A stretch of 64,000 nt of DNA. Origin: Escherichia coli (lineage in GTDB: Bacteria; Pseudomonadota; Gammaproteobacteria; Enterobacterales; Enterobacteriaceae). The stretch is from NCBI RefSeq assembly GCF_048403405.1, contig NZ_CP183135.1; one strand, given 5' to 3'. The position numbers are program-made. This document shows positions 1-6,000 of the stretch, piece by piece (the first letter of the stretch is position 1; each line of letters opens with the position of its first letter).

Positions 1-3000
1 TTATGCCTGCTGTGGATTGCTGCTGTGTCCTGCTTATCCACAACATTTTGCGCACGGTTATGTGGACAAAATACCTGGTTACCCAGGCCGTGCCGGCACG
101 TTAACCGGGCTGCATCCGATGCAAGTGTGTCGCTGTCGCCGGCCTCCTCACCCGGTCACGTTTCGTCGTTCCTCCTCCACGCGCTGCGGCTTCGGGGCCG
201 CACCTGCATTCGTATGCGGTCGCCCGGTTACAGGTGCGGCACGGCCTGATGGAGGCCGCATGTGAGAGGAGAATTCCCATGCCAAACTGGTGCTCGAATC
301 GTATGTATTTTTCTGGTGAACCGGCACAGATCGCTGAGATTAAACGACTGGCCAGCGGTGCAGTCACACCACTTTATCGCCGCGCCACAAATGAAGGTAT
401 TCAGCTGTTTCTGGCCGGAAGTGCCGGACTTCTGCAGACCACTGAAGATGTGCGGTTTGAACCATGCCCCGGACTGACGGCTGCCGGGCGTGGCGTTGTA
501 TCGCCGGAGAATATCGCGTTCACCCGCTGGCTGACACACCTGCAGGACGGTGTACTGCTGGATGAGCAAAACTGCCTGATGCTGCATGAACTCTGGCTGC
601 AGAGCGGTACTGGACAGCGTCGCTGGGAAGGATTACCGGACGATGTCAGGGATACCATCACCGCACTTTTCACCGCAAAAAGAGGTGACTGGTGTGGCTT
701 CTGGAGTAACGAGGCTGTATCGGTGTGGTGGAACCGTCTGTGTGACAACGTACTGCCGGAAAAAACCATGCCGTTTGACCTGCTGACGGTTCTGCCCACC
801 CGCCTGGATGTTGAAGTGAATGGCTTTAACGGTGGTGTTCTGAACGGTGTTCTTTCTGCATATCACTGGTATACGGAACAGTATGGCGTGAAGTGGCCTG
901 TGGGGTATGAGGTGAATATCAGCAGTCAGGGAGACAACTTCATTCAGGTGGATTTCGACACGCCGTGGTGTCAGCCGGAAAGCGACGTTATTGCAGAATT
1001 AAGCCGCCGTTTCAGCTGCACAATGGAGCACTGGTATGCCGAACAGGGCTGCAATTTCTGTGGCTGGCAGCGATATGAGCGTGGCGAGCTTGTTGATGTG
1101 CTGTGGGGGGAGCTGGAATGGTCTTCCCCGACAGATGACGATGAGCTGCCGGAAGTCACCGGACCTGCGTGGATAGTCGACAATGTGGCGCATTATGGCG
1201 GATGAAGTATGACGGAGACGGGCGGGCAACCGCCCGTTTCTTTTCCGGTAAAGGATGTCGCCGGGCTCCTCTTTTTACTGCGCCGGCTGACGCGGCGCGG
1301 CAGGAACGCTGCCTGTGGTCAGTGTCCCGCGTCCGGTGGGCACGGGACGGGCGCTTTTACCGCTCCCGGCTGGCACCGGTGACAGTGTACGCCAGCCCGT
1401 CGCCCTTTTCTGATGAACGCCCTTCAAGCCGCTTTCGCGGCATAGCCTTGCCGTCAGAAAGACGACGGCTGCGGTATTCCACGGTCGGCCTGACCCGTTA
1501 CCGGACGCGGTGAACAGCCCACAGGCAGCGGGGAACGGGCACCACAGGGGTGCCCTCCCGGTGTCCTCTGTAAGAGAAGGAGCGTTGTTATGTCCCGTTT
1601 TGTCCTCGGTAACTGCATCGATGTTATGGCCCGTATTCCTGATAACGCCATTGATTTCATACTGACTGACCCGCCGTACCTCGTCGGTTTTCGTGACCGT
1701 TTCGGGCGCACCATCGCCGGCGATAAAACCGATGAATGGCTGCAACCGGCCTGTAATGAAATGTACCGCGTACTCAAAAAAGACGCGCTGATGGTGAGCT
1801 TCTACGGCTGGAACCGCGTCGATCGCTTTATGGCCGCCTGGAAAAATGCGGGATTCAGCGTTGTTGGTCACCTGGTCTTCACCAAAAACTACACATCGAA
1901 GGCCGCATATGTGGGCTATCGCCACGAATGCGCCTACATCCTGGCAAAAGGCCGTCCACGTCTGCCACAAAACCCGCTGCCGGACGTGCTGGGCTGGAAA
2001 TATTCGGGCAATCGTCATCACCCGACGGAAAAGCCCGTTACCAGCCTGCAACCGCTGATTGAGAGCTTCACACACCCGAACGCAATTGTGCTGGACCCGT
2101 TTGCAGGCAGCGGCTCAACCTGCGTCGTTGCCCTCCAGTCCGGACGCCGGTATATCGGTATCGAGCTGCTTGAACAGTATCACCGTGCCGGACAGCAACG
2201 ACTGGCCGCCGTGCAACGGGCCATGCAGCAGGGGGCCGCGAATGATAACTGGTTTGAACCGGAGGCTGCGTAAATGAACTATGCCGGACACGAAAAACTT
2301 CGCGCCGACGTGGCGGAGGTGGCCAACACCATGTGTGACCTTCGGGCCAGGCTGAACGATATGGAGCATCGCTGTCGCTTTGATTCCGATGTGCTTGTTG
2401 AACGCCTGACACGCCAGACGCTGTATCGCGCCAATCGCCTGTTCATGGAGGCGTATACCGAAATTCTGGAACTGGATTCCTGCTTCAAAGATTGAGAAGG
2501 AGACGAGAATGTACGGAACATGCGAAACGCTATGCCGGGAGCTGGCAGCAAAGTATCCGGGAAACACGCCGCTGATGCTGCTTATCTGGTCCCCGGAAGA
2601 GATTCAGGCCCTCGCTGACGGAATGGATATTTCTCTGTCCGATCATGAAATCAGAACCGTCCTGGCGCGCCTGGAGGACATCCCGGAAGACCAGCGGACT
2701 GAATCCGGTATTTCTTCCGGTGCGGCGATGGAGATTATCAATAACGTGAGAGAAAACCGCCAGGTGACCGTCCCTGCTGAACTGCTGGCGTCCCTGATTC
2801 AGACCGCCGAACAGGCACTGTGGAAACGTGAGTGGGCCGCCCGTGATAACGGCCTCGCCGTCCCGGAATGCGTCACCCGCCGACAGGCGGTGGTTAATCA
2901 GGCCCGCGCCCTGCTGAAAAACAACACACGCGAAAACGACTGATGTTATCGCCGCCTGCGGGCGGCGATTCAGGGAGACCATGAATCATGAACGAAACGC

Positions 3001-6000
3001 TGAATGCACTGATTTATCGCCACGCCAGCAACCTGCTGCTGGCGCAGGGCTGGCCGGAAGAGACGGATGTTGACCAGCGTAATCCGAAGTATCCGGGCTG
3101 GATCAGCATTTACGTGCGGCTGGATGTGCCCCGGCTGGCGACGTTACTTATCAACCGTCACGGCGGCGTACTGCCGCCGCTCCTGGCCTCCGCCATTCAG
3201 AAACTGACCGGAACCGGGGCGGAACTGGTACTGTCCGGCAGTCAGTGGCAGTCGCTGCCGGTACTTCCGGCAGACGGAACACAGGTGTTTTTCCCGTATG
3301 CCGGAGAATGGCTGACCGAAGACGAAATCAGGGCAGTTCTTGATGCAGTGCGCAATGCAGTACGAAGCATCTGTTACCAAGTGGCAGAAGATGCCCGGCG
3401 TATCCGGGCGGCGCTGACCACCACCGGTCAGACGTTGCTGACCCGCCAGACGCGCCGCTTTCGTCTGGTTGTGAAGGAAAGCGATTACCCCTGCTGGCTT
3501 GATGAAGATGACGAAAATCTGCCCGTGGTGCTCGATGCCATTCTGAACCGTGGCGCTCGTTTTTCGTCGGTGGAAATGTATCTGGTCAGTGAGTGTGTGG
3601 AGCATATCCTGTCCAGTGGGCTGGCCTGCGATGTGCTGCGTATACCTGATGAACCGTCCCGTCGCTGGTTTGACCGGGATATTCTGCGGGAGATGGTCCT
3701 GGAAGCCCGGACTGAAATCCGCAGCATGGCGGATGCACTGGCGAAAATCCGGAAATGATGACGCTGGCGGGGAAAATCTCCGCCTTTTCCAGCCGGTCCC
3801 CGGAAAGAGCAAAAGGATGTCGCCGCAGGCTCCGCTTTACCCGGCCATGCGGGGCATGGCCTTGTGGGTTTTCAGTTATGTGGCCTCAGCGTCGTGTGCG
3901 GGCTGTGCCGTGCCTCCATCGTAGCCGGGCTTCTGCGGGCGGGTTGCAAGGTAAGGTGAACCGCTGCGGTCACCCGGTCCCTCCTTCCCGTCTGCCGTGA
4001 TTTTCCGGTCGTTCACCCGCTCAGATTTCGCGGTCTCACCCTCCAACTCCCGTCAGCCGTGCGCGTCAGGCTGCGGCTTCCCTTGCGCCCTTGCAACCCT
4101 GCAGGCCCGGCAAAGATGGAGGCACGGCACCGCCCGGTGTCGCGGAATATGTGAACAACGGAGGAAATCCCATGCAGTATGCGAAACCTGTCACTCTGAA
4201 CGTTGAAGAGTGCGACCGTCTGTCTTTTCTGCCTTACCTGTTTGGCCTGGATTTTCTGTATGCCGAAGCGTCTGTATACGCGCTGGCGAAAAAAATGATG
4301 CCGGAATATGAAGGCGGATTCTGGCACTTCATCCGCCTGCCGGACGGTGGCGGTTACATGATGCCGGATGGCGACCGTTTTCATCTGGTCAACGGTGAAA
4401 ACTGGTTTGACCGTACCGTGAGTGCTGATGCCGCAGGCATCATTCTGACTTCCCTTGTGATTAACCGCCAGTTGTGGCTGTACCACGACAGCGGGGATGC
4501 AGGGTTGACACACCTGTACAGGATGCGCGATGCGCAGTTGTGGAGCCACATCGAATTTCACCCCGAATGCAACGCGATTTACGCGGCACTGGACTGATTA
4601 ACGGACGGGGCGGCAATGCCGCCCCTGTAAAGGAGACGAGAACATGTACTGTACTGTTAAAGAAATCATCCGCGATGTACTGGATACAGACGTGCCGGAC
4701 AGTGAATGCGTTTTTGCCGTGGTGCTGACCCGTGGGGATGTGCGCCACATAGCCCAGGACTGGAACCTGTCAGACGATGAGCTGGAAACCGTCATGCAGC
4801 GGCTGGACGATGCCTTTGAATATGGTGCGGATGTCAGCATTGTTCACGACGTTGTTCGTGAGCTGATGGAAGAAAAGCGTGCCAGCCGTCAGGTGACAGT
4901 TCCGGCGGTGATGCTGGAAAAAGTGATGGCGCTGGCAGGCAGTGAAATGAAGCGCCTGTATGCCGTCGGGAGTGAGAACGGGGGCGACGGTGATGCGTTC
5001 GTCAGGGAGGAACGCGAAGCAATGGACGTTGTGTTACAGGCGCTGGACGGGGAGCACATGTCATGAATATCAGCACAGAAACCCGCGAAATTCTGCGCAA
5101 TTACAAAGCCGTGATTAATGCGCGACGTCGTGAAATGGGGCAGAAACCGCTCACCACCGCGCAGATTGTTGATGAAATCTGCGATTTTGTGGCGAATCAG
5201 CAGGCTGTTTTCCTGGGCGGTCACTACATCTTACAGGGCAGCAGAAACAGGTGATACAGGGCAGGCGGTGAAGGCCGCCTGTCAGCCCGCGCGAAAACCC
5301 CTGGCAGGCTGACGCCTGCCGGAAGGGAAGCGGGCCACGCTGGCGCGTCGCCCGTTACCCTTCCCGTCTGTGATGTGTCTGACTCAGGAGTGTTTCTTTC
5401 TTATGTTATGGAACTGTTCCTGATGTTGTTGTTCCTTTATCTGCTGCTCTGATTCTGACTACTGCAGTGTTGTTCTGTCTGCCGGGCGCACCTTCGGCTC
5501 CCGGCTGCCTGGCGGCATCCGGTCGTCAGGCCCGACTCCGACAGGCAGCTGCTGGCGCACCTGCCAGTCTCCGCCGAACCCGCTGGCGCGGTTTCGGGCT
5601 GTCGCTACGGTCCGATGCGTGAAAACCACAGGCTTGCAGCGACCGTTCCGGTCGCGCCGCCTCTGTCGCGCCGTGGCCTGCGCTCCCGGCATCCCGGCAA
5701 AAGGCCGCCGGGATGTAAGGCGCAACGCCGTTTCGCGCACGCGCTCTCCGTCGTTGCGGCGGGTCCCTGCTCATTGCCTGCCGGGTGCCACACACCCGTA
5801 TGAGTCCCTGTCGCCGGGGGCTGATACAGCCACAACCTGCCGCACTGACTGTCTAGGGTAAATGAACAGCCCACAAAATTTTTTACCCAAAACCCGGTAA
5901 AAAATTTTGCGTTCTGCCCAGGACAGGTGCGTCAGGCCGTGGCAGTGATGCCCCTTGCGGCGAAGGTTCTCAAACGGGTGAAGTTCATACCACAGGGAAT

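Follow-up and report, generated by a model that had tools for sequence, protein, structure and literature searches.

DUF1380-A and DUF1380-B of the IncF leading region are ancient, position-linked paralogues and candidate early-acting binders of host proteins

Why does the leading region of an Escherichia coli plasmid carry two small, similar genes of about 140 codons, one in an operon headed by a DNA methylase and the other in an operon headed by the antirestriction gene klcA? We addressed this question in a stretch of 64,000 nucleotides (nt) of E. coli DNA (contig NZ_CP183135.1, assembly GCF_048403405.1), hereafter the window, whose + strand holds the two open reading frames at 2509-2943 (ORF1, 144 amino acids, aa) and 4644-5066 (ORF2, 140 aa). 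An earlier note on this DNA had described them as a paralogous pair of about 140-aa proteins with three common motifs, lying in separate modules, and had read their duplication and divergence within the anti-defence region as a sign of specificity variants of one function.

ORF1 and ORF2 were aligned by BLASTP with 28% identity over 116 residues (expect value, E=1e-10), and their global alignment gave 38 identical positions in 147 columns. The pairwise test for chance similarity that the earlier note had proposed was run: the Smith-Waterman score was 102 versus 29.4 +/- 5.2 for 2000 shuffled sequences, none of which scored as high (z=14), so the similarity is not due to chance. All three motifs named in that note were found in both proteins, namely the MY.T N-terminus (MYGT in ORF1, MYCT in ORF2), the LSD.E..TV..RL.D core (LSDHEIRTVLARLED and LSDDELETVMQRLDD, respectively) and RQVTVPA. 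In an alignment of 15 sequences of both types, 18 columns were invariant and spread over the full length, among them M1, Y2, L43, E47, R84, V86-T87-V88-P89 and L136. ORF1 matched the Pfam family DUF1380 (PF07128) over its full length (E=4e-54), and ORF2 gave a weak partial match to the same family (E=6.5e-4, residues 1-99); phrog_9024 was matched by both (E=4.5e-73 for ORF1 and E=2.5e-5 for ORF2). AlphaFold2 models built on a 28-sequence alignment reached predicted local distance difference test (pLDDT) values of 89.5 for ORF1 and 81.1 for ORF2 and showed six helices in identical order, with four shorter helices followed by a long C-terminal hairpin in both predictions.

That the resemblance reflects chance or low complexity, or that the ORFs are not real genes, is an explanation with practically no chance of being right, and we regard it as already refuted. 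The weak scoring of ORF2 by Pfam would speak for it, but it is ruled out by the shuffling test, the common family matches and the 18 invariant columns, and also runs against the common predicted topology, ratios of nonsynonymous to synonymous substitution rates (dN/dS) that lie well under 1 and the conservation seen in many genera. Therefore, ORF1 and ORF2 are true paralogues, homologous over their full length, as the alignments, the common Pfam and PHROG family and the common topology confirm.

The pair is not new, since both ORFs are already named 'DUF1380 family protein' in RefSeq and occur on thousands of IncF/IncI plasmids. PF07128 and phrog_9024 are the family itself, whose A type (ORF1) goes by the names YcgB, YubF, YfcB and YceB, and whose B type (ORF2) is called YcjA, YcgC, YubJ, YfeC or Orf52. 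Both ORFs agree with DUF1380 in length, MYGT N-terminus, RxVTVPA motif, occurrence on Enterobacterales plasmids and position in the IncF/IncI leading region. The PF07128 model was built mainly on the A type and barely detects the B type; the membership of ORF2 follows from Pfam, phrog_9024, BLASTP to ORF1 and the RefSeq naming taken together. In the catalogue of Samuel et al. 2024 (Nature 635:186, Supplementary Table 3), both are leading-region families labelled 'Uncharacterized', with a leading-strand orientation and an enrichment in that region: family 7 (YcgB/YubF/YfcB; DUF1380) with 3957 members at a median gene position of 19 from oriT, and family 14 (YcjA/YcgC/YubJ/YfeC) with 3145 members at a median gene position of 15. 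They stand there as two separate families and their common origin is not discussed, although PF07128 is annotated in both.

A profile run against 1.84 billion representative proteins gave only 286 matches, many of them fragments, and a plasmid protein search gave at least 5000 near-identical records. Foldseek matches in the AlphaFold database (AFDB50) were DUF1380 proteins only, from Escherichia, Salmonella, Klebsiella, Yersinia, Hafnia, Erwinia, Pantoea, Sodalis, Kosakonia, Kluyvera and other genera. Among 28 diverse relatives, 24 matched DUF1380 alone and no other Pfam domain was seen. Six loci (L005, L007, L009, L010, L014 and L024) lie in assemblies labelled Oscillibacter, Oscillospiraceae, Streptomyces morookaense, Collinsella or Acinetobacter idrijaensis; these labels outside the Enterobacterales probably reflect contamination or mis-binning and not the true host range. 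Apart from a few records with such names, the matches in the AlphaFold database and in genomes were all from Enterobacterales. Long 'fusion' records (P0242, P0252, P0262, P0001, P0132 and P0170) were considered as functional clues and set aside: they combine adjacent genes of plasmids, for the most part from the leading region, each represents one to three sequences, and we read them as the products of deletions or frameshifts and not as informative domain fusions.

The age of the duplication was apparent from the tree. The loci compared (L-numbers) were gathered by a DUF1380 search, and a methylase without DUF1380-A is therefore invisible among them. In a neighbour-joining tree, the proteins formed two deep clades that matched gene position: a methylase-YubE pair was upstream of every A-clade copy with upstream sequence, and a KlcA homologue was upstream of 13 of the 13 such B-clade copies. 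This linkage to position holds at about 25-35% identity and also on a different plasmid backbone (ParM/StbA, L030). In a contig of Citrobacter werkmanii NBRC 105721 (L023, 4893-8503) there are four DUF1380 genes, one pair behind methylase-YubE and another pair behind KlcA; the extra copy in each operon groups with the clade of that operon. The two deep clades and the extra copies in one plasmid uphold the duplication and divergence proposed in the earlier note. The duplication is ancient and position-linked, with the A lineage in methylase-YubE-DUF1380A-YchA and the B lineage in KlcA-DUF1380B-orf63.

In the window the genes follow one another as sopAB, DUF1281 protein, methylase, YubE, DUF1380-A, YchA-like, KlcA, DUF1380-B, orf63 and a Frpo-like repeat. 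The features of the two operons are the following.

1206..1589, - strand: intergenic region upstream of the methylase, likely the counterpart of the pESBL 'class 3' single-strand promoter upstream of M.EcoGIX.
1590..2273, + strand: gene heading operon 1, for an M.EcoGIX-like adenine DNA methyltransferase specific for single strands (NCBIfam NF010253, E=4.6e-150; RefSeq label 'DNA methylase'), a function described for the pESBL homologue (PMC7736820, PMC4288162).
2274..2495, + strand: YubE-family protein of 73 aa (phrog_4830; PF27407 is assigned to the L003, L027 and L030 homologues).
2509..2943, + strand: DUF1380-A (YcgB/YubF/YfcB type), 144 aa, isoelectric point (pI) 4.8, net charge -7.
2949..2968, + strand: G+C-rich hairpin TCGCCGCC-TGCG-GGCGGCGA in the gap that separates DUF1380-A from the following gene, lacking a T-run.
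2988..3758, + strand: YchA-type protein of 256 aa, last gene of operon 1 (phrog_8919, E=1.6e-132).
3759..4171, - strand: intergenic region upstream of klcA, likely the counterpart of the pESBL 'class 2' single-strand promoter.
4172..4597, + strand: gene heading operon 2, for an antirestriction protein of the KlcA/ArdB type (match to phrog_10132 'anti-restriction protein', E=5.7e-20; RefSeq label 'antirestriction protein'; PF03230 is assigned to homologues).
4607..4625, + strand: G+C-rich hairpin GGGGCGGC-AAT-GCCGCCCC just 5' of the DUF1380-B ribosome-binding site.
4644..5066, + strand: DUF1380-B (YcjA/YcgC/YubJ/YfeC type), 140 aa, pI 4.3, net charge -17.
5063..5254, + strand: orf63, a basic protein of 63 aa, pI 9.6, whose start overlaps the DUF1380-B stop (ATGA).

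The earlier note had placed one ORF after the methyltransferase and the other after KlcA. This is right for ORF2, which has KlcA directly 5' of it, and needs amending for ORF1, where YubE intervenes. Genes within each operon abut, overlap or sit at most 46 nt apart; the YubE start codon abuts the methylase stop (TAAATG) and orf63 overlaps DUF1380-B as given above. No sigma-70 consensus promoter was found in 1100-5500, and the hairpin at 2949-2968 was not flagged as terminator-like. The spacing, together with the absence of promoter and terminator signals, points to co-transcription of each DUF1380 gene with the first gene of its operon. The YchA-type gene is 3' of DUF1380-A in most loci (it is absent in L030), and the pESBL counterpart of its product is listed as YchA (PMC4288162, Table 2). 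The ATGA overlap recurs in distant relatives (L003, 6426-6429; L029, 454-457), which suggests translational coupling of the very acidic DUF1380-B to the basic orf63 protein; the orf63 gene itself is found with or without DUF1380-B upstream.

Several smaller observations concern the ends of the two genes. RefSeq starts DUF1380-A at 2425 (172 aa), overlapping YubE, and many database entries have 155-184 aa; because the MYGT start at 2509 is found family-wide and is preceded by a strong AAGGAG ribosome-binding site, these longer starts look over-extended. A 13-nt ribosome-binding stretch, AAGGAGACGAGAA, is common to both DUF1380 genes before the ATG (2494-2508 and 4629-4643), and this sharing is absent between orthologues in more distant plasmids; gene conversion at the 5' end, or chance, is a possible explanation. 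Hairpins with 8-bp G+C-rich stems and no T-run are also present in the gaps beside DUF1380 genes in L011, L020 and L023 (upstream), and such intercistronic hairpins could mark places where the mRNA is processed or stabilised, or could be structures of the single strand.

When would these operons be expressed? Many E. coli IncF plasmids match positions 2-9000 of the window with 100% identity, and the matching plasmid records number more than 5000. The traJ 5' untranslated region and FinP are at 20068-20179, and ssb and psiB lie on the + strand from about 12.1 kb, between the DUF1380 region and the traJ leader. On F-like plasmids, oriT is just upstream of traM-traJ. From this order and the position of the traJ leader and FinP, oriT was placed near 19.5 kb; as all these genes point towards it, the region makes up the oriT-distal portion of the leading region. 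Both ORFs are thus located in the leading region and oriented with the transferred strand as template.

From 1308 onward, a 4-kb stretch is collinear with pESBL at 92.6% identity. In that plasmid, single-strand promoters were located by 5' rapid amplification of cDNA ends (RACE), one of 'class 3' upstream of M.EcoGIX and one of 'class 2' upstream of klcA, the two operons were induced in transconjugants of pESBL and F, and the hairpin promoters on the incoming single strand transcribe them within minutes of entry into the recipient (PMC12672017). In the leading region of F, four operons with single-strand promoters are likewise described in a 2026 preprint. In the window, both upstream regions fold as - strand DNA into a long hairpin, with -110 kcal/mol (z=-6.3 versus shuffles) at 1206-1589 and -106 kcal/mol (z=-4.5) at 3759-4171. 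By analogy with pESBL and F, for which it is reported per operon, both ORFs would be expressed early in the recipient from single-strand promoters. The claim of separate modules is correct, because the pESBL operons have promoters of their own, mapped separately, and are induced. The pESBL orthologues Hp10 and Hp12, whose orthology was checked, are 92% and 96% identical to the window proteins, and in a transposon screen for maintenance and transfer to a laboratory K-12 strain they were scored 'non-essential 1.00' (PMC4288162, Table 2), as were M.EcoGIX, KlcA, ArdA and PsiB.

The constancy of position raises the question whether the DUF1380 proteins serve their neighbours, as adaptors or accessory subunits of the effector of their own operon, A with the methylase (and YubE or YchA) and B with KlcA, without any host target. 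Such adaptors could serve to tether the effector, or to time it, on the entering strand coated with SSB (the protein that binds single-stranded DNA) or at the replisome. The unbroken association of A with methylase-YubE and of B with KlcA, and a paralogue tree that mirrors operon position, fit this account, as does the apparent coupling of B to orf63. In addition, the activity of M.EcoGIX was lost on purification and kept by fusion to DNA polymerase I (PMC7736820), a hint that a partner matters.

However, KlcA is often found without B. It is followed directly by orf63, with no B, in L005 (whose KlcA is 99% identical to that of the window), L011, L015/L017 and L022, and the same KlcA subtype is accompanied by B in L020 and L023 and stands without it in L005, L011, L015 and L022. 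An ArdA-like ORF, identified by eye from the translation, occupies the KlcA+B slot at 6567-7166 of L013, followed by an orf63 homologue, and KlcA and B are both absent from L012, L014, L016 and L021. Since KlcA occurs without B, and ArdA replaces both in L013, B is not an obligate partner of KlcA; the KlcA+B slot behaves as an exchangeable anti-restriction cassette. On the methylase side, M.EcoGIX alone, in vitro or expressed from a plasmid, methylates single-stranded DNA, and the cloned enzyme was active without DUF1380 genes (PMC7736820); A-family members (3957) outnumber methylase members (3753; Nature 635:186); and a methylase lacking A would have been missed by a search that started from DUF1380. 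With the frequent absence of B beside KlcA, these points make the adaptor account rather unlikely.

Rates of evolution and residue conservation give another view of the pair. The dN/dS ratio was 0.20-0.46 for DUF1380-A and 0.14-0.31 for DUF1380-B, compared to 0.06-0.15 for the methylase and 0.04-0.15 for KlcA of the same loci. Both DUF1380 genes are under purifying selection and change at 2-3 times the rate of the methylase and KlcA; in L003, the DUF1380 proteins were 34-36% identical to those of the window and the methylase 82%. The pI was 4.3-5.2 in 27 of 28 aligned members and 6.1 in the remaining one. Only M1, E47, G67, R84 and L93 were conserved in at least 90% of 28 diverse members, and as these do not form a set of catalytic type, a non-enzymatic role is suggested. 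The C-terminal hairpin is clade-specific, with ALWxxEW...PVPE in A and a GGGD loop in B; because A and B differ most there, any difference in target specificity would be placed in this hairpin.

We favour, tentatively, a direct role in the recipient. The DUF1380 proteins would be non-enzymatic, acidic, all-helical binders with a four-helix N-terminal domain and a long C-terminal helical hairpin, acting stoichiometrically in the new host right after plasmid entry. They would bind a host protein and neutralise or redirect it, the most likely target being a component of a host DNA-targeting defence or repair pathway, and would work beside the methylase and KlcA without being required by them; A and B may be aimed at different targets or variants. 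That they are stoichiometric binders present just after entry, likely directed against a host DNA-targeting barrier and differing in target, has in our estimate somewhat less than an even chance of being correct. With slightly less confidence again, we suggest that they constitute a new early-acting establishment or anti-defence family with a fold unlike solved structures, whose lineages partner a methylase and KlcA, respectively, and neutralise different targets.

Searches for relatives of known function gave little to anchor this proposal. Against PDB sequences, phmmer and a profile hidden Markov model found only designed proteins and sub-threshold calmodulin matches, and Foldseek against the PDB returned nothing at E<=1e-3. 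There was no NCBIfam match for the DUF1380 proteins, no PADLOC family matched them, YubE, YchA or orf63, and tblastn against phage genomes gave no match for either DUF1380 protein. KlcA and ArdA were ruled out as hidden paralogues (hhalign probability about 0.1%). Homology of YchA to DUF1380 is not claimed, the profile-profile probability being only 3-6%; residues 104-124 of YchA (window 3297-3359) contain a motif of 19-21 residues that resembles the DUF1380 core, IAQDWNLSDDELETVMQRLDDA.

KlcA/ArdB and ArdA are, like the DUF1380 proteins, small, acidic, located in the same early-expressed cassettes and dispensable in the pESBL screen for transfer into K-12, but they share no sequence or profile similarity with them and their folds are not among the structure-search matches. 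DNA mimics of the ArdA/Ocr type have a very high negative surface charge, and for the DUF1380 proteins the figures, -17 over 140 aa for B and -7 over 144 aa for A, are total charge only; again, no such fold was among the structure-search matches. A weak local profile likeness to EF-hand proteins (calmodulin and troponin C; calmodulin E about 0.1-1) was seen at positions 40-66, a region that includes LSDxEIxTVLxRL, and Foldseek EF-hand matches were of low probability, none of them significant. The calcium-binding loop of an EF-hand is of the DxDxDG type. By eye, the DUF1380 consensus shows no such loop, and this likeness is a lead only.

A number of points weigh against a host-directed, anti-defence role. 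No sequence or structural similarity to known anti-restriction or anti-CRISPR families was detected, Samuel et al. report no similarity to characterised proteins for families 7 and 14 (Nature 635:186), and in the literature searched we found no functional study of either gene or of DUF1380, and no direct functional data. With dN/dS below 1 over the whole gene, no arms race is signalled at that level. The neighbourhood of anti-restriction genes is only guilt by association, the strict link of A to methylase-YubE fits a role within the module just as well, and the co-transcription of the DUF1380 genes with the first gene of their operons is inferred from spacing and the lack of signals. Furthermore, other proteins of the leading region, such as YfjB/HerB, act by reprogramming the host and not by blocking defence. 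Of the interpretation given in the earlier note, the paralogy, the modules and the divergence stand, while the anti-defence role and the 'specificity variants' stay at the level of a proposal, and no likeness to known inhibitors was found.

The example of HerB/YfjB leads to a further explanation, in which the DUF1380 proteins are establishment factors unrelated to defence that act during the conversion of the single strand to duplex and would influence the physiology, replication or repair of the host, or else the expression of the leading region. Both genes belong to operons induced on entry (PMC12672017), non-defence leading-region proteins and promoter hairpins that time strand conversion provide precedents, and the failure to match any anti-defence protein is as expected under this account. 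Its difficulties are that the models contain no DNA-binding fold or helix-turn-helix, that binding of nucleic acid is not favoured by the acidity of the proteins, and that their immediate neighbours are dedicated anti-restriction functions, with ArdA in the KlcA+B slot of some relatives. We judge it quite unlikely.

Some other features of the leading region were observed in the window. An intergenic repeat of about 650 nt is present in three copies (5413-6059, 8741-9388 and 16495-17136), of which copies 1 and 2 are 75-95% identical depending on the segment and copy 3 has 97% identity to copy 2; judged by position, the three are probably single-strand promoters of the Frpo/ssi type ('class 1'). 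Just upstream of ssb there is a group II intron (about 10074-12121), with an ltrA reverse transcriptase/maturase gene at about 10074-11975 and an Rfam Intron_gpII domain at 12001-12121. The otherwise identical plasmid pDA33133-157 has an extra IS26-bounded segment of about 25 kb with iron-uptake genes after the intron. On the - strand at 6195-6291, just upstream of a 76-aa ORF at 6286-6516, the sequence matched the Rfam family AS-pc01, an antisense RNA originally reported from plasmid pHK01.

The paralogy of the two genes is in itself ordinary and already annotated, and the real question is their function. What is added here is the age and position linkage of the duplication, the optional nature of B, the four-copy locus, the faster evolution and the profile of acidity and conserved residues. 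The split between A and B by position, together with natural plasmids that lack B or carry four copies, constitutes a ready-made experimental design. Both genes are carried by at least 5000 sequenced plasmids of the IncF/IncI type, through which antibiotic resistance is mainly carried in E. coli, Klebsiella and Salmonella, and the two genes rank 7th (A) and 14th (B) among leading-region gene families (Nature 635:186). If they act as specialised partners of the methylase and KlcA, this would explain why they are among the commonest uncharacterised genes of IncF/IncI resistance plasmids. If it is true that DUF1380 proteins disarm a host barrier, they would help to set the host range of these plasmids and would be a candidate target for blocking their spread.

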